Below, piece after piece: positions 16,437-50,708 of a stretch of DNA of 64,000 bases (the stretch's first letter is position 1; every line of letters begins with the position of its first letter). Source of the DNA: a virus (Duplodnaviria > Heunggongvirae > Uroviricota > Caudoviricetes). The stretch lies in the IMG/VR virus record IMGVR_UViG_3300025316_000590, positions 134 to 64,133 of that record. One strand, given 5' to 3'. The notes under the pieces were generated by a model. That model saw nothing but the letters and a program-made list of their open reading frames with translations. It was not told the DNA's origin and ran no database searches. The translations under genes and the position numbers were made by a program.

Positions 16437-19202
16437 ATGCCGTTAGCTGTACCGCAGTTCGTCGATGTCGGTGGGGCTCAATGGAAGATTCTTGATCGCC
16501 ACGCCGAGCAGGAGGCGATGTGGAACACCGCCCGCTACTGCAAAATGATCTACGCCTGTGCTTCCCGTGGTGCAGGCAAGTGCATCGTCGAGGGCGGTCT
16601 CGTGACGATGGCCGACGGCACCGTGCGAGCCATTGAGGATGTGAAAGCTGACGATCATGTTGTGAACGTCAGCCGTCACCTGCGGCGGCAAACGACGAAG
16701 GTGGTGGGTCTCATGAACAACGGCATGCGGCCCACTCTGAACATCCGCCTGTCGGGACGTGTGTTGCCATGCACAGATAATCACCCTCTGCTGGTCAACG
16801 GCAATCATTGGGTGAACGCGGGCGATGTGCGGGTAAATGATCTTGTGGCGGTGCTCAGATCGGATCCGCAGTTCGGCACAGAACGCATGGCTGATGATGA
16901 CCTCGATTTCCTCGCTATGTGGCTGGCTGAAGGTGCGGCGTACACCATCAGCAACCAGACGCCCGCTATCGTGAACCGTCTGCACGAGGTTGCGGCGGGT
17001 TGGGATTTGACGCCCACCAGTGATGATGGGTGTGCATGGTACTTGAAGATGAATGCTCCACGGCACGATGCGAATCTTGGCGTGCGGCATCAGGCGAGGT
17101 TGCTGCTGGAACGCCTCGGTTTATGGGGGCGGGACAGTAAAACGAAGTTCATCCCCGACTGCGTATTTAAGCTGCCCCGCGATCAGCTTGCCCGATTCCT
17201 GAGCGTGTTCTACGGCTGTGACGGTTACTGCTGCCCGAAAACAGAAAGGGGCGGGCGGGTCGCTTACACTATCGGTACGGGCTTGGCGAATCGTCTTATG
17301 GTACGGCAGATGTCGGCCCTGCTCCTCAAATTCGGCATCCGTGGTAGTTTCACTCATAGACATCACGCGGCACGCAGCCGTCGCACTGGACAGCGGTTTC
17401 ATTCATGGCGGCTGGAGACGGTATGCTCGGACGGCATTGTGCGGTTTGCTGAGGAGATCGGCATGCTGGGGAAAGAGACTGCTGTGCAGCGGGCACTCAT
17501 CGCGGCCAAGGCACTGACCCGACCGAACTGTAATGATCTTTTGCCCATCACCGAACAGGAATTTAGCGACCACGTTGTAATTCGGCGATACCACATCACA
17601 CCGCACAATGCCAGAATTCGCGGGGCTGCACCCGATCTGCTTCAGAATATGAGCCTGTGGCGAAACAGGAATTCTCGGCGGGTGTCGCGGGCCATGTTCG
17701 AGAAGATCAGGAAGCACTCGGACGGATCATTCGACAACCTCGCTGATGGTGATGTGGTTTGGGAACGCGTCGTGGCCATCGAGGATGGTGGCGTGCGACA
17801 GACGTATGATCTGGAGGTGGAAGGCGAGCATAACTTCATTGTGGAGGGGGCAGTTGTTCATAACAGTGAGATGGCCAAGCGTAAGCTGGCTATGAGTCTG
17901 GGTATCCGCAAGCCGTGGTATGACCCACGCTATTTCTACGCTGCCCCAACGTACCGGCAGGTTAAATCAGTGGTGTGGCAGGATATGCTGCACTTCGTGC
18001 CGCCGTCGTGGATCGCACCACATGGCATATCACACAGCGAACTCACGATCAGGACGATCTTCGGCAGTGAACTTAAGCTATTCGGTCTGGACAGCGCACA
18101 GCGCATGGAAGGCGTGCAGTACGATGGTGGCGTTGTAGACGAAGCCTCCGACGTCGACCACGGCATGGTTGACCGAGCTATTCTCCCCGCCCTGACGCAC
18201 CGCGACGGCTGGCTGTGGAAGATCGGTGTGCCTAAGCGGTTCGGCATCGGGGCGTATGAGTTCAAGAAGCAGTTCCTGCGTGCGATGCGGAAACGCCGCG
18301 AGTCCGAGGCCAACGGTACAGTTCCAGAAGAAGCTGCGTTCATTTGGCCCGCAGACGGCATCGTGCCCCAGGCCCGCCTGGACTTCTACCGTCGCACGTG
18401 GGATCCGCAGGACTTTGAGGAGCAGTTCGGTGCCCAGTGGCTGGAGGTGGGCGGCGGCATTTACCACAGTTTCTCAGCGGCGGAGGACGGCACGGGCAAC
18501 GTGCGGCCATGTCCGTACCGACCTGATCTGCCCATCCGCGTAGGCATGGACTTCAACGTGAACCCAGGTGCGATCACCCTGGGACACAAGGTCGACAATC
18601 ACTTTGAGGTGTTCGACGAGTTCCATCTGCTCAATACGAACACCCAGAGGATGCTCGACTCCCTGTGGAACCGCTACGGCACGCCAGGGCGGAATCATCG
18701 CAGTGGCTTCTGGTTCTACGGTGACGCCACGGGCCGAGCACGCAAGACGTCGGCAGCATCATCTGACTACACCCAGATCTTCAACGACGCCAGATTCCGC
18801 GAGGTGGGTCGAACTATTCATTGGCAGAAGAGCAACCCGCCCCGCACCGACAGGTTTGCCTGCACGAACGCCCTAATCAAGAATGGTGAAAATGAACGTC
18901 GATTACTCATCGACCCACGATGCACGCACCTGATCGACGACTACATGCACCGTGCGTGGCGTGAGCACACCCGCGAACTGCCGACCGAAGAAGGTATGGT
19001 AGGGCATCATGCAGATTCATGTGACTATATCATCTGGCGTGTGTTCCCGCTGCGTTTGAACGTCATGGAGCTTCCCGACGTCAGCATTTCCCTGCCAACG
19101 CAGGCAACGTTGCCTAACCCCGGCCTGACGTCGCAAGTGCCCGGATACATGGATCCGCGGGCCAGCCGCAGTCTGAGAATCAATCCATTGGCTGGCGAGT
19201 AG
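16437..19202 (+). CDS. terL: Terminase large subunit, intein-containing
   Basis: Walker A ASRGAGK|S, YAAPTYRQVK, Walker B GGVVDEA, nuclease GMDFN, YGDATG, HHADS. Confidence 0.93.
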   Translation: MPLAVPQFVDVGGAQWKILDRHAEQEAMWNTARYCKMIYACASRGAGKCIVEGGLVTMADGTVRAIEDVKADDHVVNVSRHLRRQTTKVVGLMNNGMRPTLNIRLSGRVLPCTDNHPLLVNGNHWVNAGDVRVNDLVAVLRSDPQFGTERMADDDLDFLAMWLAEGAAYTISNQTPAIVNRLHEVAAGWDLTPTSDDGCAWYLKMNAPRHDANLGVRHQARLLLERLGLWGRDSKTKFIPDCVFKLPRDQLARFLSVFYGCDGYCCPKTERGGRVAYTIGTGLANRLMVRQMSALLLKFGIRGSFTHRHHAARSRRTGQRFHSWRLETVCSDGIVRFAEEIGMLGKETAVQRALIAAKALTRPNCNDLLPITEQEFSDHVVIRRYHITPHNARIRGAAPDLLQNMSLWRNRNSRRVSRAMFEKIRKHSDGSFDNLADGDVVWERVVAIEDGGVRQTYDLEVEGEHNFIVEGAVVHNSEMAKRKLAMSLGIRKPWYDPRYFYAAPTYRQVKSVVWQDMLHFVPPSWIAPHGISHSELTIRTIFGSELKLFGLDSAQRMEGVQYDGGVVDEASDVDHGMVDRAILPALTHRDGWLWKIGVPKRFGIGAYEFKKQFLRAMRKRRESEANGTVPEEAAFIWPADGIVPQARLDFYRRTWDPQDFEEQFGAQWLEVGGGIYHSFSAAEDGTGNVRPCPYRPDLPIRVGMDFNVNPGAITLGHKVDNHFEVFDEFHLLNTNTQRMLDSLWNRYGTPGRNHRSGFWFYGDATGRARKTSAASSDYTQIFNDARFREVGRTIHWQKSNPPRTDRFACTNALIKNGENERRLLIDPRCTHLIDDYMHRAWREHTRELPTEEGMVGHHADSCDYIIWRVFPLRLNVMELPDVSISLPTQATLPNPGLTSQVPGYMDPRASRSLRINPLAGE
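16581..17864 (+). mobile_element. Intein with LAGLIDADG endonuclease (428 aa) in TerL Walker A
   Basis: Starts CIVEGGLV; TDNHP block B; FLAMWLAEG and FLSVFYGCDG; ends YDLEV..HNF..VVHN followed by Ser. Confidence 0.93.
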
Positions 19203-31991: not shown

Positions 31992-32040
31992 ATCGATCTT
32001 CTACTTCCTAAATGGTCGTACATGAGTTATATTGAATGTT

Positions 32041-33024
32041 ATGAAACGAAGACGTATAGCACCAGTTGGTGGTTGGAAGACCGGCGTTTACTGTATCCGA
32101 AATACGGTAAACGGTAAAGTTTATGTTGGTAGTGCTGCTCGTGATTTTGAACATCGTTTTGGGCAACATAAAGGGGCACTACGATACGGAAATCATCACA
32201 CGTCGCATTTACAATCGGCCTGGAACAAGTACGGTGAGGTGGCATTTGAGTTCGTCGTGTTAGAACGTTGCCAACCAGACCTATGCCTTGATCGAGAACA
32301 GTACTGGATTGATCGTCTACATGCTACTGATTCACAGTTCGGCTACAACAGTGTGCCTGCTACGGGACGCCAAATCGGATCTGTCAATTCTCCTGAGACT
32401 CGTGAAAAGATACGGACATTTTGGCGAAATGCTAAAGAGAACCCGATTCAGGTATCAATCAGATTCGCCGAGCGATTTCATCTCAAGTCGTCTGAGCCTG
32501 TTTATATAGCTTGGAATGCCACAATAAAAAGACGACGTAGTCTGTTTTGTATCCGTTGGTTAAAATTTGAAAATTTCTATGCTGATATGGGACCTCGCCC
32601 TGTAGATCGACCGATCATAGGTCGCATTGATGCTGACGGGTTATACGAGCTAAGCAACTGCCGTTGGATGACGCGAATGGAATCAGCACACACGTCGCTG
32701 CGGTCGAAACTGATTGCGTACAATGGAAAAACCCAGCATATAGCAGCGTGGGCTCGTGAACTTAGCAAAAACCGCATACAACTGGCAACGCGGCTGCGGG
32801 AAGGCTGGTCATTTGAACGTGCTATATCAGAGCCATATCATAAAATGGATAAGATGACATTCAACGGCGAAACACACAGTGTAGCCGAATGGGCTAGGCT
32901 GAAAGGTTTAAGTCACGGATGTATTTGTGGCAGACAACGCATGGGGTGGAGCATTGATCGAATTCTAACAACGCCAACACGTGGGAAATATCACCCACGT
33001 CGTCGCCGTATACAGTCAATATGA
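32041..33024 (+). CDS. GIY-YIG homing endonuclease with additional HNH-like segment and repeated DNA-binding units
   Basis: GVYCIRN..VYVGSA, LQSAWNKYG, REQYWID, GYN; FENFYADMG..RID..Y..SNCRW; 2x NG.T....WA..GWS. Confidence 0.85.
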   Translation: MKRRRIAPVGGWKTGVYCIRNTVNGKVYVGSAARDFEHRFGQHKGALRYGNHHTSHLQSAWNKYGEVAFEFVVLERCQPDLCLDREQYWIDRLHATDSQFGYNSVPATGRQIGSVNSPETREKIRTFWRNAKENPIQVSIRFAERFHLKSSEPVYIAWNATIKRRRSLFCIRWLKFENFYADMGPRPVDRPIIGRIDADGLYELSNCRWMTRMESAHTSLRSKLIAYNGKTQHIAAWARELSKNRIQLATRLREGWSFERAISEPYHKMDKMTFNGETHSVAEWARLKGLSHGCICGRQRMGWSIDRILTTPTRGKYHPRRRRIQSI

Positions 33025-33225
33025 TGCTGGCCGCAGCCCTATACCGGAGATTGGAATGCTCATATCAAAGATCGTCTGGAGGCCCACGTGCGTGCTGAGG
33101 TAATAGCTGGTAGAATGAGCTTGAAGGAAGCCCAGCAGATCTTCGTTCCAGATTGGACGTCGACCTTCAAAAAGATGGGCTTAGATAAATGCTCCGCAAT
33201 CCAGGTTGACGAAGACATCCAGTAG
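33025..33225 (+). pseudogene. Displaced alternative 3' end of the 31407 HNH gene
   Basis: Startless frame CWPQPYTGDWNAHIKDRLE..GRMSLKEAQQIF.PDWT, homologous to LWPEPYNVQWGAHIKDRLE..GKMTLKQGQDVF.PDWT. Confidence 0.85.
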
Positions 33226-33232
33226 GTTAAAT

Positions 33233-36200
33233 ATGATCATTGATATCCCGATCTTTCTCGGAGATGTGGAAGGCCATGCGTTCCACGGCAATCAGTGGAC
33301 GGGCAATGCTAAACTGGCTCCCGATACGGGAGGTGGTGATGGCGGAATGACCGAAGTGGAAGAAGGCCACGATCAGACCATGCGGGGTGAGTTCTGGCTA
33401 CAGGGATCCACGGCGATGTCGGCTGATGGTGATATCGATGATATGAACCACGAGGCGTACGCCATCCAGCAGGCACGAAGTGATCTTGCCGATTCCCTCG
33501 GTGTGGACTCCGACGATGATGATGCAGATACCATCATCGAAAAATATGCCGAGGATCATCCCGATGAAGCTGATATTCTGAGGGGTAGCGATTACAGTAC
33601 GCCAGAGGCTAAAAAGCTATTCGAGGAAATCGGCTTGAGCCCTGATACCCTGTCGGTGGCACAGGGGTTCGGCGATTCCAGGTTGTGGGCGGCAGCAGAG
33701 CACGGATGGGTGCGGGTGGCTGGCAACAGCGTACAGACCGTGGGCATCGATAGCTCCAAGATGTCCGAGATCGCGGATGGGCTACATGATGCGTACGGTG
33801 AGGATGTGGAGACGCAGTCGTTCGATGTGGAGGTCGTTACTCATGACTCGGCTCGCCCCGGTATGGTGGTGAACTCGCACACGTACCGCGATGTGCCGTT
33901 TCAGGTGCTGGGCGAAGGAAATATGAGACGATTCTCTGAATACCGCGATGCCGCATTTTCTTTGTCTGGTGATACGCCGAAGCCTACTGGCGACAAAAAC
34001 AATCGGGGCGAGTCTGGATACTGGATCACGACACATGGCGGCCACCACGTCTTTATCCTTGAAGGTGGATCTGGTATCGATGAGGATAAGCTAAAGGCCG
34101 CGGCAGCGACACTGCCGTCTACGCCTGGGTTTGGGACGGCACAGAGCCGTGCCGCGAGCCGGGCGGCAGGAAACGTCATCAGCGGGAACACGTACCGAGT
34201 CAAAGACCTCATTAGTCATTACGGCGGGCAGTGGGATGGTAAAACTAAAGACTGGGTCATGCCCAACGCCGAAAGCACGAAGATGATGCGAGACGTGATG
34301 GCGGGCAAGTACAACGCCAGTACAGCATCACCCGCACCGCGTGTATCATCTCCAGCGGCAGCACCACTTGTGATTCATGGTGCTACCTTCGGCATCAAGG
34401 ACGTGATCAAGAGTGCCGGCGGTCGCTGGAATCCCAACGGGAAGAATTGGTTGATGCCAAACCAGGAAGCTGTCGAAAAGGTGCGTGATCATGTAACGAA
34501 GAACAGCATCAAGGGCGTGAATATGCCCGACGCCGCCAAGGAACCGGCACCGGCAGCGAAGCCGGAAGCAGACGCCGTGGAGGCAAGACAAGCGGTACGC
34601 GTGGCACGGGCGAATCGGGATGGGAAGGGTACGCTGTCGCGTGATGCTGAAAACGCAACAGATCATTCATCCCGACTGGACAACGTGGCCATGCAGAAGA
34701 AGACGCCGGAATCCCTGACCGCGGCCTTGGCTGCCACAGCAGACGCGGCGACGAAGCGGCGGGCGGCTGCCGATGCCATGATCGATCACAACAACCAGAT
34801 ATATCGGGATCATATTAACTGGGCCGAGACTCATGAACAGCGTAAGGCATCCCTGGAGCAGGAACTGCATCATCCAGAGGTAGCACAAGCTGCTGCTGCC
34901 GAAGCGGCACTCATTGCTAAACCCGTGGCGTGGAAATCGCATCGTGCGGGTGGCGACGTAACTGCAAGATCAGAAACGCAGCAAGGTTTCACGGTGCAAA
35001 GCCAGCGTGGTGAATATAGTGCTAGCCCGGATGAAGGTTATGTCGGCCAACTGCGTGGCTACCGCGTGTACTTCAAGGGTAGCGACGGGTCGCAGGAAAG
35101 TCTCGGTACTGTTTCAGACATGATCGGGGCATCGGGGATGGTCAACAAACATTTATCGAAGAACAAGGATCATACCCTGTCCTTGGAGGTTCCAATTGAT
35201 ATCGGTCGCGATGCGAGCTTCTTCGCTCCGGGCGTGCCAGTATCGTACAACGGTTTGGTTCAGCACGTCAGGGACCCGCAGGTTCAGAAGAATGCCGACA
35301 GAATCATTTCGGGCACGACCAACAAGCCACTGATACAGCGTAGGATCGAGAGCGACTCTGATCTAGCCCATATCTTTGGCGGCAAGATAGACTTGCCTAC
35401 CGCACAGCACGCAGCCGACATTACGTGCGACGAGCTTAATCTGTTACGCCTGACTGTGAAATTTATGGTGGGCGACAGCGGCCTGACCAACGATGGATTC
35501 CAGCGGGTTGGTCATTACAAGAATGATACAGCACAGTTATGGGGAGCTGGGCAGACCATACCAGTTCTCCTGCATGAGATTGTGCATCATGTGATGACCC
35601 ACAGCCCAGATTGTGAACCAGAGGATAGGCACAGTCCGCTATTTAACAGTACCTATTACAGGGTAGTCAATGCCTATCTACAGGCGATTGGTTCGACGGT
35701 TTGTCTGTCTCTCGATGTGCCTATTGAACTGGGGGACGTAGCGGGTCACGAGTTTCGTGGCAATCAGTACACTGTTGGAATAGCCAAAGACTATTTTCCC
35801 AAGGAGATGCATCCCAAGGGAATAGGTGAATCGTTTGTTCACACGACTACGGTTAAGGCGGGCAGTCGTGCAGAGGCGGCAAGTAAGTACTGGGCCGAAC
35901 ACGGTCCAAGTCATTTACCACGCATGATTCCCGAGGGTAGGCTGCCCAGGAAGGTCAGCGTTCACGTTAGCTCATCTGGATTTAAGCCTGGAATGGGCAG
36001 CGAGACCGGATCGGGACCGTCGCGTCTAATGCCGATTTTGGTACACGGACCTGGGGCTCCGCAACCGCTGGAACGTACGTTCAAGACCATGAAGCATGCG
36101 GCCAATGAACTGCAAGCGATCAGGAACGACTTTGCATCGGCGGCACACGATCCCATCGATCAGCTCAAGGCTCGTGTGGATGCAGTGGGCAAGTGGGCGG

Positions 36201-39200
36201 CTGGGCAGAAGAATACCAAGTTCATCGCCAAGCTGCTAGAGGAGGCCCACATGCTGCACGACAGGCTAAGTGGAGGCAGCGGCAAGGCTGGCATGCGTAT
36301 CCAGATGAACCTCGACGATTCGCTTGAATTGGGTGACACTGTTGGGCACGAGTTCCGTGGGAACCAGTGGACAAAGCATCTTCTTGCCAAACTTCCAACG
36401 ACGGACGATAAGTCTCAGTCTGGATTCATTCGCCCCGACGCCCAATTGGTAGATGTCGGGCACAGCGATGCATTTGACGATGTCAAAACACACGCGGCGG
36501 CGGCTCTCGGGGAAGATGGTGTTTACGAGGACGAGCCTCGTGCCATGAACGCTCTGGCCAAGGCGATGCATGTTGGGTTCATTCGTCATACGGGGAACGG
36601 AAGTTTTGAGATACACAAAGAGCCGACGGATAGCCAGTATCAGACTATTCAGGATATGGCAGAGGATGCCGTGCAGCGAGGCTACCGAGCACGGGTTCAA
36701 ATGTACGGAGCCAAAAATATACCATCGGGTGCCGCGGATAACGCATACGTCAGTGCGAACAGTGATGCTGAGGTCAGGGGTATATCAGATCGAGTTCGGA
36801 TGTACTATCAAACTGGCAAGCAGCCGTACGTGTCGCCACTACGCCTTGGTGACGTTGCTGGTCACGAGTTTCACGGCAATCAGTGGACAAATCACGGACT
36901 GTCAAAGTTACCCACCACAGAAAATCAGGATGACGCCGGTTTCATTCGGCCAGATGCGAAGCTGATTGATATGGGTAGAAGCATCGGCTTCAAGTTCGAC
37001 AAGAACGGTAGGGAATTAAAGGGTGGCCCTTTAACGCATCTAAAGGCGGCTGGTAGCCACAGTCAGCTAGATGTGGCATTCGCACATGGTTTCATTCGGT
37101 ACTACCCAGAGCATCAATCTTTTGATATCCACAAGGAACCGAATGATGCACAGTACGAACGCATCGCGGCGATGGTGCATAAGCATGCTGCTGAAGATAA
37201 GGTATCCAACCTGGAACTATTTGATAGCAAGGGCGAGAGCACGTACATTGAGATAGAACCAGAAACCCCTGATTTGGCCGTGAGCAAGATAAGGTCGTTT
37301 TACTCAGGTGTTAAACCGTATGCGTCTCCGCTACGCCTCGGTGACGTAGCGGGCCATGAGTTTCATGGTAATCAGTGGACGGAGGGTGCGGCTCGCCTAG
37401 AGGTCGCTGCCATCAAGGCGAGTAAGGCCCGCGAGGCACTGGACGCCTTGATCACCGCGAAGGCCAGCCCGGAGGCCAAGGAACCGCTGGCCGCGGCGTG
37501 GCGGAAGGCACAGGACGAATACGCGGATATCCATCGCGAGGTGTCGAACATGCCACCGCAGCCGCCACCGCCGTTGGGTAGCCTCACAGGCCCCGACGAT
37601 GGCAGCCGGTTCGACGAACTGCGGAAGAACGGCCTGCTGGTGAAGAACGGTCGCCCGACTGGCACGCGAGACGTAGGGCCGGTCGATATCAAGGGATGGC
37701 GAGTCGGCAGCCGAGATGACAAGTACGGTCGTGGTGTGTTCTATGCATCGGACGATCAGGGGGCGAAAGCTTACGCATCCCTGCATCCAGGCGAGGAGGT
37801 CAAGGCTGATGATCTTCACCTCACCAATGTCCTCCTGGCCGGTCATCAGGACGACGTGAGCATGAAGCTCTTCGGCAAACACTACGGCGATATGATGGAT
37901 GGCCTGGCTGCTCGCAACAAGAGCGAAGTTGTGGGTGGCCAGAAGTTCGATGTGAAACTTGCCAAAGAAGCGAAGAAGCGTGGTTACGACGCCATCATCT
38001 ACACCGCACCTGCCCCGCCGGCTAGTGGTGAAATCGCCGTGTTGGGCAGCAAGAAGCGTGCAGCGAAGCTAAGCCTGGACGTACCGCTGGAACTGGCCCT
38101 AGTGACTTTCGACGATATCAAGGACGGGGGCCGGAACCGTGTGCAGCGGGACTTGGCACAGGCGGCTGCTGACACCGATACCGAAGCCTCCGAGGCTGCG
38201 AAGAAGGCCGGGACACTACTGATGTCGGTGCGTGTAGAGGGCATCGACCAACCTGTAGAATTCGGATATGGGCAGGGCATGCTTCATGATGTTGATTGCA
38301 CCAGCACACAAAACGATGTTGCCCTTGACGTAGCCCTTAGCGGAGTCGATGCGGTCAACGGAAACAATCATAGGGTTGATGCGTCGGTGTCCATGACGCC
38401 GTCTGGTTCCAACCTTACGGGCGTAAATCATGGGCAACCCTGTGTAGAAGCATGTGCCGTTTTGACTGTTCCAAAGGTCACGGATGTAATCGAAGTCGAT
38501 ATTGCACTTCCTATGCGTTTGGCGACATCGCAGGCGAACGTTGTCCATGACGGTACGAAGGGCGAAATCGAGCGATTTGAACTTCCTGGTTTTGTAAGCA
38601 GCCTTAGCTCGCTTTCTGCATCCGTGACAGACACCCTCAAAACTCGTTCTGCCAGTCTTCAGCAGAACTTTATTAAAACTTCCCACGGGAAAGTCGTCGC
38701 CACACCGCTTGCAGCGTTTTTGACCAGTACGGATGGCCTCGGCGGTGCGGTTTCTGGCACGAATCGAGCGTTGGTTGAACAGCGTCGAGTCGTCAATGAA
38801 CCGACGAACATCGGAGGCAAACTTATCCGTGAAAAACATAATCTTCTGGTCGCATCGACCAGAAGTACCGATAGGAAAATGAATAGTGTAGTCGATGCCA
38901 ACGGTAGGCGACAGGGCTCGAACCACTGTACGCCGCCATCCATCGTAGCGGGTTGTGACCCTGCGTCCCGTGGCAGTCTTGATTTGCCGATAGAGATCGA
39001 ACAGCGGTCGGGAATCGACGGGAAATCCAGAGTGGACAGTAGCAATTCGTCGTCGTATGATGACCATACTAAAACCTCCTTAGTAGGTTGCGGTCATGCC
39101 CCTGGTGTTTCCAGCACGCAGGGGCAACTTCTATGTTCTAGCATAAACACTGATGCTGATCAAGATGTTAGGCATCAACTAGCGAAAGCTGCATTGGAAA

Positions 39201-42200
39201 CCGACCTTCATTCTAGTCCAGCACAGCAGCAGTCTGGATCATACAAGAAGGGCCGTGTCACCATAGCTGGACTGGGTATCGCCATCGAGAACCCGCACAT
39301 GAGCACCCGCTGCGGTATCGGAGCGAATGGCCCGTGGTCTACCGTGATGAAGGGCGGGCACTACGGTTACATCTACAAGATCGACGGCAACTGGGCTCCG
39401 CGGAGCGAGGCTGATGGTGATCACATGGATATCTTCGTGGCCCCCGACATCGGGAATGGCCCGGAGACCGATACAGTCTACGTCATCGACCAGACCAAGG
39501 TGGGTTCCCCCGGCGAGTTCGACGAGGCCAAGGCCATGTTCGGCTATCCCAACGCCGACGCCGCAGTGAAGGCGTACTTCGACAGCTACAGCCCCGGCTG
39601 GGCGAACGTAGCCGACATGGTACAGATACCTCTGGGTCAATTTAAAGCGTGGGTGGAGTCGGGGAAGACTGCCGAGCCCGCGGGCCTGCTGAAAAATGGA
39701 ACTGCGGTTACGTTATCCCACGACGAGGACGAAGAGGATGATGATGACGATACGATTGTGGAGCCCAACGTTCTGGGCGGGCATAACTACCGCAAGCAAG
39801 ATGGCCGCACCGCCTCGACTCGCAGAAACGTGTTCGGCGGCGAGTCCCAGGTGGGCGACGGTGACTTCGAGACCCGGCCCGGTGTGGGCGGCACGAAGCA
39901 CGTCAGTGGCCATCTGAAGTTCAGCACGGACGTACCGCTGGAGCTTGGCGATGTCGAGGGCCATGCCTTCCACGGCAACCAGTGGACGCAGTCGCCCTTG
40001 GCGAAGCTGCCCACGACCACGGATACTAAATCAGCCGGCTTCATCCGACCTGACGGGAAGCTCGTCGACCTGAACCGCAACAAGCGTGAGGGTTACTTGA
40101 GCCACAGCAACGCCGCCGAGGGAAACCTGCACCAAGAGCTTGCCCGCAACGGGTTCATTCGCTGGTCGCCTGACGGATACAAACTGGACATCCGGTCCGA
40201 GCCTACCGACGAGCAGTACGCGGCCATCTCCGATATTATTGCGAAACACCACAAACCCGTAGACCTGGAGATGGGCGACCAGACCGGCAAGGCCGATGTG
40301 GGATCGTGGGAGAACGGTGTGGCCGCGGTCAAGAAGCTGAAGGACTGGTCGTCGAATGGTGCCCTGTCTACGGCAATTGCCGCCAGCCTTGAGTCAATCT
40401 ACGCTGCCCGTGATGAACTGGCACTGAGCGACGTATCATTCAAAACATTCAGCCCAACGCAGGAGAAGCTGCCAATGGGTAACTACGATTACGAATATAA
40501 CCATCCGCTGTGCAAGAAGCACAACTATCGTCACAGCCGCAGGGGCATGGGGTGCCCGTATTGCCGAGATGATGGCAGCCAGCCTTGGTGTAGTGCGTGT
40601 GGTGAAGGTATCCCGCTAGGCGAGGTAAAGCAGGACGAGCCGCATACACATGACGTGCATAAGACGTGTGCGGGTAAGCACCTGACCGCTCTGGAAAAAC
40701 TACGGCCATTGATGGATTACGAAACGCAGTGGGAGAAAGCCAAAATGCCAGAAACCAAACCACAGCAGGGCGGGATGCTCGCCATGTTCTCACGCGATGA
40801 TCGGCAGGCTATCCGTTTGTCCCGTCGCAAGAAGAAAAAGGAATTGGTCAAGTTCACCGAGGAGACTGCACCACTACAGGCCCGTGCCTTGCTCCACTCC
40901 CTGGCCATGCGATTGATTGCCTGCCGCGACGCCGGTTGGAACCGCCAGCAAATCTACACCGAGCTTGGCCGGTACTATAACTCGCAGGTCGCCGATATCT
41001 GGGACGCCGCCGAAAACCAGGAGGTGAAGCGGATGGTCGTTCAGGGCGAGATTGCAGCCTCGCTGGAGAAGACCGTGAAGTGCCTGGACTGTGATCAGGA
41101 CTGCGACGAGAACGGCAAGTGCCCGAAGTGCGGTGGGGCAGTGAATGTGTTCACGGGTAACGCGTTCGGTCTATCAGCGGACGTCATCACGGCGTTCCGA
41201 GACCTGTTCGATGCCTACCTGAAAGGTGATGTTGTCCTCGGCGACCTGCCTGGGCATACGTTCCACGGTAACCAGTACGGTGGCCTGCCGGTGTACGATA
41301 AGCAGCCTTGGGGCGACGCCTGGCAGAAGCGTATGGCCCGCAGCGGTCTTGATCCTACCAAGGTGAAAACCGTTCTGGTCAAATCTTCATCGGGAGGCCG
41401 ACCGCACTACTCCAAGATGCTGGCTCATCCTACCGAGCCGAGGAAGGCGTGGGTGGGTGAAGCGGGCAACGTCCACGAGGAGGTAGTTCCGCACCATAAC
41501 GTGTATCATGCGAATTCGCAGGGGAACGTGGTTCTCCTTGGGCCAAAGCCAGATCATGAACTCAAGTTTGTGGAGGATGGTAACGTGACCGCATCATTAG
41601 ATATTCCGCTGGAACTGCACATGGCAACCGGCAAACGTGATGAAACCATCGGCATCGACTTCGATGGTACGCTGGTCAAACGGCTGGATGGCCCGTACAA
41701 CCCCGCCGCCCACGGCGACCCCATCGACGAACGCTGGGACGAGGTGCGTGCCGCCCTCGACGCGGGTAAGCAGGTGGTGATTTTTACGGCCCGCGTGGCA
41801 AACGATCCGAACAGCATCGCCCGCGGAGCCATCGAAGACCTGTGCATGGAGGAACTGGGGCAGGTACTTCCGATCACCAACGAGAAGACCCCGAACATGA
41901 TCAGAATCATCGACGACCGAGCCACGGGCGTGACTCCGGACGGTACGGACATGCCCAGCTTGGCTGCGTCCCTCGATATTCCTCTGGTGCTTGGCGATAC
42001 CCCAGGCCACGAATTCCACGGAAATCAATGGACAGGAGGAGGCGGTGCAGCTCAGGGTGCAGCCAACGCAGTCGCGTCAGGCGATGCGGCGATGCTTGTG
42101 CGGATGGGTCAGCCCCACCCAGCCTTCACCAACTTCAAGCAGCCCATGCGGAAGCTCCTGCGGTGGTGTGGCCGGGAGGGCATGAACCTCCAGCAGGCCA

Positions 42201-43618
42201 AGAACGCCCTGAACCGTGCTGGGCTTAAAGTGCCGCCGGATCCAACTATTCGGGCAGAACTGCCCATCGGAGCCCGCGGCCTCACACGCGGCGGGCGTGG
42301 GGCCGACATGCCCAACCTGACCGACGAGCAGAAGGCTATTCTGCGTGGCCGCATTGGGGGCACCGACCCCGGCGTGGCTGGCCGCCAAGCCGCCGCAGCC
42401 GCTGAGTGGCAGAAGCAGCAGGCTGCCAAACCCGCCCCAGCAGCCAAAGCACCCGCCGCAGCCCCAGCCGCTCCGCCGGCCCAGAAGTATGCTGATCATA
42501 AGGATCGAGCCGACCGGGCCGATGCTGCCGAACGTGTTGTTCGAGATCGTATCATCAGAGGGGAACGTGGGGCGGGTGTGTATCGTGATCGTGCTGTGGC
42601 CTGCCTGGCAGCGGCAAAGATTCATGACGACGCGGCGGCAGCCGCCCGTGCGGAAGGGAAGAACACCGAAGAGTCGCAGCACGGCCATAGGGCCGATGAG
42701 CACGAGGTCAAGGCCGCGAAATACAACGACAAACTCGACGCGGCGAACAAGGTCACCGACCAGCACCCAGACGTCAAGAACGCTGTGAAGTCCATCGACG
42801 ACGCGATGGCCGCGACGCGGAACCAGCCCGCTCAACCGGCACAGGTATCGATCACCCCCGCCGACAAGGTCAAGCGGGAAGGTGAACTAGCCAGCACCCC
42901 GGCCAAGAAGATCGGGGATATCCCCGGCGTGGATAAGTGGAACCACGTCAGCCAGACATTCCTAATCACGGATCAGGACGGCAAGAAGCACGTGTTCAAG
43001 CCCGTCAACGGCGAGGCTGACTACTCGGGCGTGTGGTACGAAAGCTCGGGTTCAGGGCCTGGAGCCCGCCGCGAAGCCGCCGCGTACAGCATGGCCAAGT
43101 GCGTAGGCATGACCGACATCGTGCCGGTGACGGTTATGCGTAACCAGCCGAAAATTAAATCAGAAGGCGGGGAGACCGTGTCTGGTACTGGTAGTGCCCA
43201 GGACTTCTGCGACGGCTGTAAGACGGCACGCAAGTCGGCCAATGCCTGGGACGGGGAGAAGGATGCAGCCCGCTGTGCGGCGTTCGATTACGTCATGGGC
43301 CTGACCGACCGGCATCAGAACAACTGGCTGATTGACAAGGACGGAGCGGACGACGGCAAAATACACCTCATCGACCACGGCTACTCCCTGCCAGACGTCG
43401 ATAAGTCCCTCGACGACCGCGGGTTCCTCGGACACGCCAGCCAAAACCGTACTCCGATCTCTGATGAGATCAAGTCGGCGTGGCGAGGCAAGTGGGGTGA
43501 CATTGAGGTGGCCCTGAAGAAGCTGGACATCGGGCCGAAAGCCATCGAGAAGTGCAAGGCCCGCTATGATAACCTCCTGCGTGCTAAAAACTTCCGAGAA
43601 ATCAGCCTGCGGGCTTGA
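33233..43618 (+). CDS. Giant polyvalent cargo polyprotein 5 (3461 aa)
   Basis: Starts MIIDIPIFLGD like 19457; GNQ motifs at 33251, 35723, 36323, 36839, 37331, 39938, 41231, 41984; HExxH, ART-like, PPase-like, HAD and kinase modules. Confidence 0.85.
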   Translation: MIIDIPIFLGDVEGHAFHGNQWTGNAKLAPDTGGGDGGMTEVEEGHDQTMRGEFWLQGSTAMSADGDIDDMNHEAYAIQQARSDLADSLGVDSDDDDADTIIEKYAEDHPDEADILRGSDYSTPEAKKLFEEIGLSPDTLSVAQGFGDSRLWAAAEHGWVRVAGNSVQTVGIDSSKMSEIADGLHDAYGEDVETQSFDVEVVTHDSARPGMVVNSHTYRDVPFQVLGEGNMRRFSEYRDAAFSLSGDTPKPTGDKNNRGESGYWITTHGGHHVFILEGGSGIDEDKLKAAAATLPSTPGFGTAQSRAASRAAGNVISGNTYRVKDLISHYGGQWDGKTKDWVMPNAESTKMMRDVMAGKYNASTASPAPRVSSPAAAPLVIHGATFGIKDVIKSAGGRWNPNGKNWLMPNQEAVEKVRDHVTKNSIKGVNMPDAAKEPAPAAKPEADAVEARQAVRVARANRDGKGTLSRDAENATDHSSRLDNVAMQKKTPESLTAALAATADAATKRRAAADAMIDHNNQIYRDHINWAETHEQRKASLEQELHHPEVAQAAAAEAALIAKPVAWKSHRAGGDVTARSETQQGFTVQSQRGEYSASPDEGYVGQLRGYRVYFKGSDGSQESLGTVSDMIGASGMVNKHLSKNKDHTLSLEVPIDIGRDASFFAPGVPVSYNGLVQHVRDPQVQKNADRIISGTTNKPLIQRRIESDSDLAHIFGGKIDLPTAQHAADITCDELNLLRLTVKFMVGDSGLTNDGFQRVGHYKNDTAQLWGAGQTIPVLLHEIVHHVMTHSPDCEPEDRHSPLFNSTYYRVVNAYLQAIGSTVCLSLDVPIELGDVAGHEFRGNQYTVGIAKDYFPKEMHPKGIGESFVHTTTVKAGSRAEAASKYWAEHGPSHLPRMIPEGRLPRKVSVHVSSSGFKPGMGSETGSGPSRLMPILVHGPGAPQPLERTFKTMKHAANELQAIRNDFASAAHDPIDQLKARVDAVGKWAAGQKNTKFIAKLLEEAHMLHDRLSGGSGKAGMRIQMNLDDSLELGDTVGHEFRGNQWTKHLLAKLPTTDDKSQSGFIRPDAQLVDVGHSDAFDDVKTHAAAALGEDGVYEDEPRAMNALAKAMHVGFIRHTGNGSFEIHKEPTDSQYQTIQDMAEDAVQRGYRARVQMYGAKNIPSGAADNAYVSANSDAEVRGISDRVRMYYQTGKQPYVSPLRLGDVAGHEFHGNQWTNHGLSKLPTTENQDDAGFIRPDAKLIDMGRSIGFKFDKNGRELKGGPLTHLKAAGSHSQLDVAFAHGFIRYYPEHQSFDIHKEPNDAQYERIAAMVHKHAAEDKVSNLELFDSKGESTYIEIEPETPDLAVSKIRSFYSGVKPYASPLRLGDVAGHEFHGNQWTEGAARLEVAAIKASKAREALDALITAKASPEAKEPLAAAWRKAQDEYADIHREVSNMPPQPPPPLGSLTGPDDGSRFDELRKNGLLVKNGRPTGTRDVGPVDIKGWRVGSRDDKYGRGVFYASDDQGAKAYASLHPGEEVKADDLHLTNVLLAGHQDDVSMKLFGKHYGDMMDGLAARNKSEVVGGQKFDVKLAKEAKKRGYDAIIYTAPAPPASGEIAVLGSKKRAAKLSLDVPLELALVTFDDIKDGGRNRVQRDLAQAAADTDTEASEAAKKAGTLLMSVRVEGIDQPVEFGYGQGMLHDVDCTSTQNDVALDVALSGVDAVNGNNHRVDASVSMTPSGSNLTGVNHGQPCVEACAVLTVPKVTDVIEVDIALPMRLATSQANVVHDGTKGEIERFELPGFVSSLSSLSASVTDTLKTRSASLQQNFIKTSHGKVVATPLAAFLTSTDGLGGAVSGTNRALVEQRRVVNEPTNIGGKLIREKHNLLVASTRSTDRKMNSVVDANGRRQGSNHCTPPSIVAGCDPASRGSLDLPIEIEQRSGIDGKSRVDSSNSSSYDDHTKTSLVGCGHAPGVSSTQGQLLCSSINTDADQDVRHQLAKAALETDLHSSPAQQQSGSYKKGRVTIAGLGIAIENPHMSTRCGIGANGPWSTVMKGGHYGYIYKIDGNWAPRSEADGDHMDIFVAPDIGNGPETDTVYVIDQTKVGSPGEFDEAKAMFGYPNADAAVKAYFDSYSPGWANVADMVQIPLGQFKAWVESGKTAEPAGLLKNGTAVTLSHDEDEEDDDDDTIVEPNVLGGHNYRKQDGRTASTRRNVFGGESQVGDGDFETRPGVGGTKHVSGHLKFSTDVPLELGDVEGHAFHGNQWTQSPLAKLPTTTDTKSAGFIRPDGKLVDLNRNKREGYLSHSNAAEGNLHQELARNGFIRWSPDGYKLDIRSEPTDEQYAAISDIIAKHHKPVDLEMGDQTGKADVGSWENGVAAVKKLKDWSSNGALSTAIAASLESIYAARDELALSDVSFKTFSPTQEKLPMGNYDYEYNHPLCKKHNYRHSRRGMGCPYCRDDGSQPWCSACGEGIPLGEVKQDEPHTHDVHKTCAGKHLTALEKLRPLMDYETQWEKAKMPETKPQQGGMLAMFSRDDRQAIRLSRRKKKKELVKFTEETAPLQARALLHSLAMRLIACRDAGWNRQQIYTELGRYYNSQVADIWDAAENQEVKRMVVQGEIAASLEKTVKCLDCDQDCDENGKCPKCGGAVNVFTGNAFGLSADVITAFRDLFDAYLKGDVVLGDLPGHTFHGNQYGGLPVYDKQPWGDAWQKRMARSGLDPTKVKTVLVKSSSGGRPHYSKMLAHPTEPRKAWVGEAGNVHEEVVPHHNVYHANSQGNVVLLGPKPDHELKFVEDGNVTASLDIPLELHMATGKRDETIGIDFDGTLVKRLDGPYNPAAHGDPIDERWDEVRAALDAGKQVVIFTARVANDPNSIARGAIEDLCMEELGQVLPITNEKTPNMIRIIDDRATGVTPDGTDMPSLAASLDIPLVLGDTPGHEFHGNQWTGGGGAAQGAANAVASGDAAMLVRMGQPHPAFTNFKQPMRKLLRWCGREGMNLQQAKNALNRAGLKVPPDPTIRAELPIGARGLTRGGRGADMPNLTDEQKAILRGRIGGTDPGVAGRQAAAAAEWQKQQAAKPAPAAKAPAAAPAAPPAQKYADHKDRADRADAAERVVRDRIIRGERGAGVYRDRAVACLAAAKIHDDAAAAARAEGKNTEESQHGHRADEHEVKAAKYNDKLDAANKVTDQHPDVKNAVKSIDDAMAATRNQPAQPAQVSITPADKVKREGELASTPAKKIGDIPGVDKWNHVSQTFLITDQDGKKHVFKPVNGEADYSGVWYESSGSGPGARREAAAYSMAKCVGMTDIVPVTVMRNQPKIKSEGGETVSGTGSAQDFCDGCKTARKSANAWDGEKDAARCAAFDYVMGLTDRHQNNWLIDKDGADDGKIHLIDHGYSLPDVDKSLDDRGFLGHASQNRTPISDEIKSAWRGKWGDIEVALKKLDIGPKAIEKCKARYDNLLRAKNFREISLRA
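38216..39067 (-). CDS. HNH endonuclease with Zn ribbon and AntA-like N-terminus, nested antisense in polyprotein 5
   Basis: AGGAGG SD; CKRC..CHGC; QNGTCFYTG; SVDRIDSAKGYVKGNIVLC..N.MK. Confidence 0.85.
   Translation of the reverse strand: MVIIRRRIATVHSGFPVDSRPLFDLYRQIKTATGRRVTTRYDGWRRTVVRALSPTVGIDYTIHFPIGTSGRCDQKIMFFTDKFASDVRRFIDDSTLFNQRSIRARNRTAEAIRTGQKRCKRCGDDFPVGSFNKVLLKTGRTSFEGVCHGCRKRAKAAYKTRKFKSLDFALRTVMDNVRLRCRQTHRKCNIDFDYIRDLWNSQNGTCFYTGLPMIYARKVGTRRRHGHRRINPMIVSVDRIDSAKGYVKGNIVLCAGAINIMKHALPISEFYRLVDALYTHRHQ
39135..39163 (-). promoter_or_regulatory. Sigma70-like promoter for the nested HNH gene
   Basis: Minus strand TTGATC-N17-TAGAAC with TG extension; hairpin at 39097-39126 follows. 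Confidence 0.5.

Positions 43619-46028: not shown

Positions 46029-50708
<4,680 letters not shown>

Follow-up and report, generated by a model that had tools for sequence, protein, structure and literature searches.

Stop-free insertions that hide an HNH endonuclease gene (ShiLan) have been described in the DNA methylases of mycobacteriophages (PMC9957025; Arsenault, Gosselin and Gogarten 2025, PMC11855218). Here we analyse a comparable insertion, an endonuclease gene lying antisense within a giant virion polyprotein gene of a phage (IMG/VR record IMGVR_UViG_3300025316_000590). The record is 192 kb long, near-complete and present in freshwater metagenomes, and no RNA data set was listed as containing it, which has no bearing either way on how the insert is expressed; the window, that is, the whole stretch of DNA that was analysed, is a 64,000-nucleotide (nt) part of it. 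As in ShiLan, a conserved site holds a stop-free insertion that conceals a homing-type nuclease gene in a different frame, neither an intron nor an intein is detected, a short piece of the flanking host sequence is duplicated, and Ser/Thr follows the insert where the empty alleles differ. Unlike in ShiLan, the nuclease gene is on the opposite strand with its own candidate promoter and Shine-Dalgarno (SD) sequence, it is the upstream (N-terminal) helix for which the duplicated piece substitutes, the host gene encodes a virion polyprotein that is punctuated by motifs and has an InPase module, and relatives at the same site split the gene. The insert works like ShiLan but is not a member of that group, being antisense, in a different host and with an open frame that is not family-wide.

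Mobile open reading frames (ORFs) of fungal mitochondria carry a foreign gene end, as in atp6 of Allomyces and atp6, atp9, cox2 and nad3 of Glomus (PMC3630166). As here, an endonuclease lies in a conserved gene, a divergent replacement is supplied and the native piece is stranded, but the mobile ORFs carry a C-terminal part and a LAGLIDADG or GIY-YIG enzyme, whereas the present insert carries an N-terminal domain part and an antisense His-Me nuclease, in a phage. The free-standing homing endonucleases of T4-like phages include the gene-splitting mobE (Aeh1 nrdA), mobA and the antisense segD, with hairpins that sequester the ribosome-binding site (PMC2988022). They share with this insert such a hairpin, the lack of an intron and insertion in a conserved gene, and segD is a precedent for the opposite orientation; however, mobE and mobA leave genes in pieces, neither supplying a replacement copy nor keeping the host frame open, and their nuclease family differs. 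Some actinobacteriophage inteins hold antisense or out-of-frame endonucleases in open frames (bioRxiv 10.1101/2025.01.02.630785). There, as would be the case here, translation of the host polypeptide runs across the endonuclease gene on its other strand or in a different frame, but those inteins remove the junk by protein splicing and the present insert has no Hint domain. With stop-free hidden HNH genes (PMC11855218) and replacement carriers (PMC3630166) already published, the proposal in a preliminary description of this DNA that the insert is a third route besides introns and inteins was overstated.

The host protein resembles the InPase-containing polyvalent proteins of phages (Iyer et al. 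2017, PMC5512222), very large multi-enzyme proteins that also have metallopeptidase-like domains and are presumably packaged and perhaps processed; a term search of that article found no mention of homing. No report was found of an InPase-targeting family, of both strategies (gene splitting with restart, and read-through) at one site, or of a possible host processing signal within a nuclease gene. The element appears to represent a homing-endonuclease family that has not been described before and whose target is the InPase cargo domain in the virion polyproteins of phages, and one family using two host-sparing ways at one site would offer a natural comparison for the origin of full 850-nt antisense overlapping genes.

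Insertion at the InPase start

The features of the locus in window coordinates are listed below, where 'junk' denotes the host-frame translation of the insert.

33233..43618 (+): host virion polyprotein gene, 3461 amino acids (aa), with InPase and PI3/4-kinase-like domains
38069..38095 (+): module-boundary motif opening the InPase module (residues 1622-1630), top match to the position-specific scoring matrix (PSSM)
38141..38212 (+): native, stranded InPase start, 24 codons, invariant Gln at -4 lost
38210..38219 (+): left junction, GGG-ACACTAC, resembling the target Gly-Asn-Tyr codons plus one extra C
38213..39238 (+): whole insert, 1026 nt, 342 codons, host frame without a stop
38216..39067 (-): endonuclease gene, 283 aa, with a family-specific N-terminal domain (residues ~14-100), two CxxC pairs and a PacI/EndoVII-like His-Me core
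38972..38998 (+, junk frame): near-match to the host boundary motif, GSLDLPIEI, antisense to endonuclease residues ~24-32
39068..39126 (-): endonuclease leader, with a large hairpin (39097-39126), then the SD AGGAGG (39075-39080) in a small hairpin (39073-39089)
39135..39163 (-): candidate sigma70-type promoter of the endonuclease, identified by eye
39167..39238 (+): replacement InPase start carried by the element, 24 codons, invariant Gln kept
39239..39680 (+): InPase core, PF18823 (E-value 1e-34), first residue Ser, which is Asn in homologues
46029-50708: protease-scaffold protein, residues 795-960 resembling Mu-like prohead proteases (Mu-like_Pro score 0.95 in a feature search)

Sequence comparison gives good support to a site-specific insertion with N-terminal replacement. 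In the insertion-free orthologue P0184 (locus L149) the first helix of the InPase is joined straight to NYKKG, the joint that had been predicted for uninserted homologues, while in the window two copies of this start are present. The upstream copy matches P0184 at 12 of its first 13 aa (62% aa identity overall) and has a host-like GC content at third codon positions (GC3) of 0.75. The downstream copy has 46% aa identity to the orthologue and a GC3 of 0.33, against 0.79 just downstream, where the InPase core shows 90% aa identity to the orthologue across its first 20 codons. Thus, the upstream copy is native and the downstream, distant and AT-rich copy was brought by the element, confirming the homologous replacement described earlier. 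A Gln at position -4 of the InPase start occurs in 56 of 56 homologues, and its retention in the replacement, after loss from the stranded copy, suggests that the InPase is still under selection. The empty alleles comprise P0184, P0185 and 56 distinct others, the latter from a scan that selects intact sites.

Full-length relatives of the endonuclease were three proteins with 32-35% identity among 1.8 billion representatives (loci L006, L007/8 and L009). All lie antisense right after the same InPase motif, so that four of four members share the site, which points to a site-specific homing family. A stranded native segment with a divergent, element-borne homologue is also found in L006 and L007, where the replacement N-terminus contains a clear in-frame ATG and is followed by the InPase core; L009 likewise has a new start for its downstream gene, and neither the InPase nor a replacement is visible within the 789 nt available. 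The orthologue reads GGG AAC TAC at the left junction, and the altered ACACTAC recurs at the L006 junction; the TAG stop of the nuclease gene appears to be made from the remains of the target Asn-Tyr codons, both here and in L006. Since the extra C is common to L006, it gives no evidence of selection for read-through here. Shared site, orientation and replacement can be read directly from the compared loci, and from them we infer cutting and homing. The hosts in L006, L007 and L009 belong to another phage protein group, punctuated by KxA motifs (KQA, KLA, KTA, KSA), and the replacement N-termini of L006 and L007 contain a KxA-type motif resembling that of the stranded start. In L007 (360-452) the start of P0005 was called too late; homology of the N-terminal domain reaches a GTG at 360, which is 10 nt from the host restart ATG on the opposite strand.

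The exact endonuclease sequence is absent from the protein collection in which the polyprotein is present, so protein searches are probably biased against open-frame cases and towards split hosts. Annotation easily overlooks nucleases of this kind: in the public gene calls it is the polyprotein that appears. DNA-level scans of IMG/VR, GTDB and GenBank phages with short, insensitive patterns gave no further family members, and a similarly insensitive scan of JGI metagenome DNA gave only L069, which is on the same contig as L010. A nuclease was nearby at 0 of 80 IMG/VR InPase loci, found with a search pattern that selected intact sites.

The preliminary description called the gene HNH. A complete 283-aa nuclease gene is indeed present, but its product is a His-Me finger nuclease with a PacI-like core and not a canonical H-N-H enzyme. 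It matches PHROG 3322 (E-value 8e-23) and PHROG 1035 (E-value 1e-21), both of endonuclease or EndoVII families. The core motif, DR..GY..N..N, is PacI-like, and in the alignment the family-invariant residues D238, R239, G245, Y246, N250 and N259 are intact. Likeness to PacI is weak by sequence (E-value 0.02); the fold match has a Z-score of 5.0 and a root-mean-square deviation of 3.1 over 72 aligned residues, from a model with a predicted template-modelling score (pTM) of 0.37, and the fold search gave no assignment for the N-terminal domain.

Expression signals claimed for the nuclease gene were seen in part. The AGGAGG and both hairpins are present, and the SD interaction of -12.7 kcal exceeds that of every scored host start. 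The leader region (39060-39140) folds better than chance (z -3.1), but the 5-bp SD hairpin is weak alone (z 0.36). The 58-nt leader aligns with that of L009 above all 2000 shuffles, even without the SD, and its conservation despite ~30% protein identity supports a regulatory role comparable to that of the hairpins of T4-type endonucleases (PMC2988022). A -35/-10 pair can be made out by eye on the minus strand (TTGATC at 39158-63, 17 nt, then an extended TG-n-TAGAAC at 39135-40), and L009 has a perfect TATAAT at roughly this position, but the promoter scanner did not call the candidate; its sole report was a plus-strand site at 39033-61 (10/12), where 1.2 sites are expected by chance. Within the nuclease gene, a perfect 10-bp hairpin at 38843-38865 (z about -2.4) is terminator-like on the minus strand and sits just upstream of the plus-frame ATG 38879.

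The open host frame

The host ORF spans 33206-43618 (+), with ATG 33233 as the likely start, and the polyprotein is called as a single gene on 8 public contigs. A codon-aligned antisense gene within a stop-free stretch of ~342 codons, as first reported, was borne out: across 38213-39238 the host frame has 0 stops while the other two plus frames have 20 and 28, and the endonuclease ORF is in codon register with the host ORF. The endonuclease has no TTA, CTA or TCA among its 15 Leu and 14 Ser codons. The insert is found without indel or changed letter in contigs of four runs from three studies (one run, X1, possibly being the source sample), and an assembly artefact was ruled out by the unchanged insert in contigs of the other runs. 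The insertion-free joint was not seen in contigs of the same samples, although contigs cannot show absence. A co-occurring relative of ~87% identity in runs X2 and X5 covers only 37702-37996, its contig stopping before the insertion site.

By the calculation suggested in the preliminary description, the chance that the nuclease gene lacks TTA, CTA and TCA was 0.024 from genome codon usage, 0.064 from empirical 283-codon windows and 0.015 from the codon usage of the relatives. A stop-free spacer has a chance of 0.17 and register at both ends a chance of 1/9, giving a joint chance for gene, spacer and registers of roughly 3e-4 to 1e-3. Only one of 104 other homologous nuclease genes, a short and GC-rich one, lacks an in-register stop. 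A p of 0.002 obtained from the gene's own third-position usage was set aside, TTA, CTA and TCA being generally rare codons. The open frame is unlikely by chance alone.

The modules of the polyprotein are separated by LDxPLEL|G/S/A and GHxFxGNQ motifs, and insertion-free P0185 has a similar boundary ahead of its InPase. Nothing relevant to this punctuation was found in the literature searched. A related phage (P0185, locus L150) has the same LEL|S/A/G boundary, with a header N..HDxxGRF replacing GHxFxGNQ. In the junk frame, 80 residues ahead of the InPase core, GSLDLPIEI ranks directly after the eight best true polyprotein boundaries, with a PSSM p of 0.004 (own-genome) or 0.01 (independent training set). 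The family shows no conservation of the nuclease residues that it overlies. This boundary-like motif is a second feature, independent of the open frame, and is suggestive, though not decisive. If it is real, host proteolysis could replace splicing.

Read-through and its alternatives

We lean towards an explanation in which the insert is read through and a protease trims the junk. A free-standing His-Me homing endonuclease would target the conserved Ala-Gly-Asn-Tyr-Lys-Lys-Gly codons that open the InPase domain of the virion protein; its element is antisense and would bring a promoter of its own, an SD guarded by a hairpin and a substitute for the first helix of the domain. The replacement would rebuild the InPase downstream, the original target site being destroyed. 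Ribosomes most likely translate the 342 residues of antisense junk as an unstructured spacer, and the Mu-like prohead protease probably cuts the polyprotein at hydrophobic-x-Leu|Gly/Ser/Ala boundaries, which would release the modules and trim the junk. The likeliest history would start from a split-and-restart ancestor, in which the antisense frame became stop-free and the restart signal was then lost. Since the frame is open and no clear plus-strand terminator was found, read-through itself is likely; that it is required and the junk trimmed has about an even chance. Near the replacement there is no in-frame ATG and no SD-led in-frame restart is evident, and the SD energies of candidate starts were -0.5 kcal for ATG 38879, -0.4 kcal for TTG 39194 and -4.3 kcal for GTG 39032. 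A further step, in which the antisense strand has been shaped into a working part of the host polyprotein, stop-free and with the host's boundary signal lying within the N-terminal domain of the nuclease, and the head protease excises the junk to free a working InPase, is put forward tentatively and is rather doubtful. If true, the host maturation protease would take over the role of an intein, and split-and-restart and read-through would both occur in the family at one site.

Several observations weigh against read-through with trimming. It was the open frame that led to the choice of this feature from a very large scan, and antisense frames are often open in this genome, with an open 342-codon antisense stretch in 6 of 33 long genes. 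The read-through form is represented by one sequence, and allelic variation with which selection might be measured is absent. The host strand of the relatives has stops in all frames in 3 of 3 cases, with 4-8 in register, so read-through is not the family rule; plus-frame stops and an independent downstream start had each been named beforehand as findings that would speak against an open-frame strategy, and both occur in relatives, two of which restart the InPase at its own ATG. An open frame is thus not supported as a strategy of the family: judged from these loci, split-and-restart is the family default and read-through is seen only in this copy. The p for GSLDLPIEI rises to 0.06 once P1' is scored, because it has Ile|Glu where true sites have Leu|Gly/Ser/Ala (Leu in 16 of 17 training sites, then Gly/Ser/Ala in 16 of 17), and the junk is not enriched in minimal cut-like sites. 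An SD is also missing at several of the phage's apparent gene starts, so that a weak restart is conceivable. Finally, both the proteolysis of the polyprotein and the specificity of the protease are deduced from sequence.

The best of the alternatives, although somewhat unlikely, is a split gene with an independent restart in the element from its own promoter and start, the upstream frame being open by chance. Restart is the rule in L006, L007/8 and L009 and at a second endonuclease of the same genome, and the candidates here are ATG 38879 (in an ATGA overlap), GTG 39032 and the plus-strand promoter-like site at 39033-61; a start at ATG 38879 would put the boundary-like motif in a leader, as in other proteins of this phage. 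However, the SDs of these starts are poor, the promoter-like match is at chance level, with one site found, and an event of 0.015-0.06 plus the register coincidences would be needed, while ribosomes from upstream would cross the open frame anyway. A vestigial restart was also considered, but is not provable: the out-of-frame ATGs 39133 and 39165 are each one base off the replacement frame, and ATG 39165 lies about where the restart of L009 does.

A neutral accident seems less probable still. The incoming gene would by chance have had none of the codons TTA, CTA and TCA and would have inserted in register, its junk forming a floppy linker or being randomly cut, with the cargo modules dispensable and the motif match due to chance. 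The genome-wide rarity of these three codons, the motif p with P1' included and the differing module content of orthologous polyproteins (P0184 vs P0001) are all in keeping with this, but an open gene, an open spacer, both registers and the motif are together unlikely to arise by chance, and it is the replacement that retains the invariant Gln.

Removal or skipping of the insert, whether it is a self-splicing intron that escaped recognition and carries an antisense nuclease, whether it is an intein or whether ribosomes bypass it, is most improbable even though antisense endonucleases exist in inteins (bioRxiv 10.1101/2025.01.02.630785) and Ser is the residue after the insert, as no intron family matched in Rfam down to an E-value of 10, in line with the lack of splicing signs reported at the outset, just 171 nt lie outside the nuclease gene and are taken up by leader, promoter and replacement codons, the polyprotein has no Hint domain by Pfam, the insert ends in QQSG with no Asn or His-Asn end, and splicing would leave a replacement segment without a purpose.

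Neighbouring genes and a second endonuclease

Downstream of the insertion site lie ~1450 polyprotein residues; the kinase-like domain is in the same polyprotein as the InPase, which is of the polyvalent-protein type. Around the host gene lie genes for a terminase, a portal and a protease-scaffold protein, together with genes for several giant proteins in which LDxPLEL|G and GHxFxGNQ motifs recur as punctuation. The scaffold part of the 46029-50708 protein is rich in hydrophobic-x-Leu-Ser/Ala/Gly sites; its protease domain was matched by the feature search alone and was not recognised by Pfam, PHROGs or NCBIfam. The terminase large subunit (16437-19202) carries a LAGLIDADG intein, and a free-standing GIY-YIG/HNH-type endonuclease gene directly upstream of the polyprotein (32032-33024) has 16 antisense in-register stop codons.

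The second His-Me endonuclease of the same genome (216 aa) is encoded outside the window (L002:937-2228; G000:C1 ~175020-176311), on the same strand. Its neighbours are a stranded 43-aa ORF on one side and, on the other, a 121-aa ORF that begins with ~41 residues closely homologous to the stranded one, so that in this unrelated context, too, there is an N-terminal replacement with its own start.

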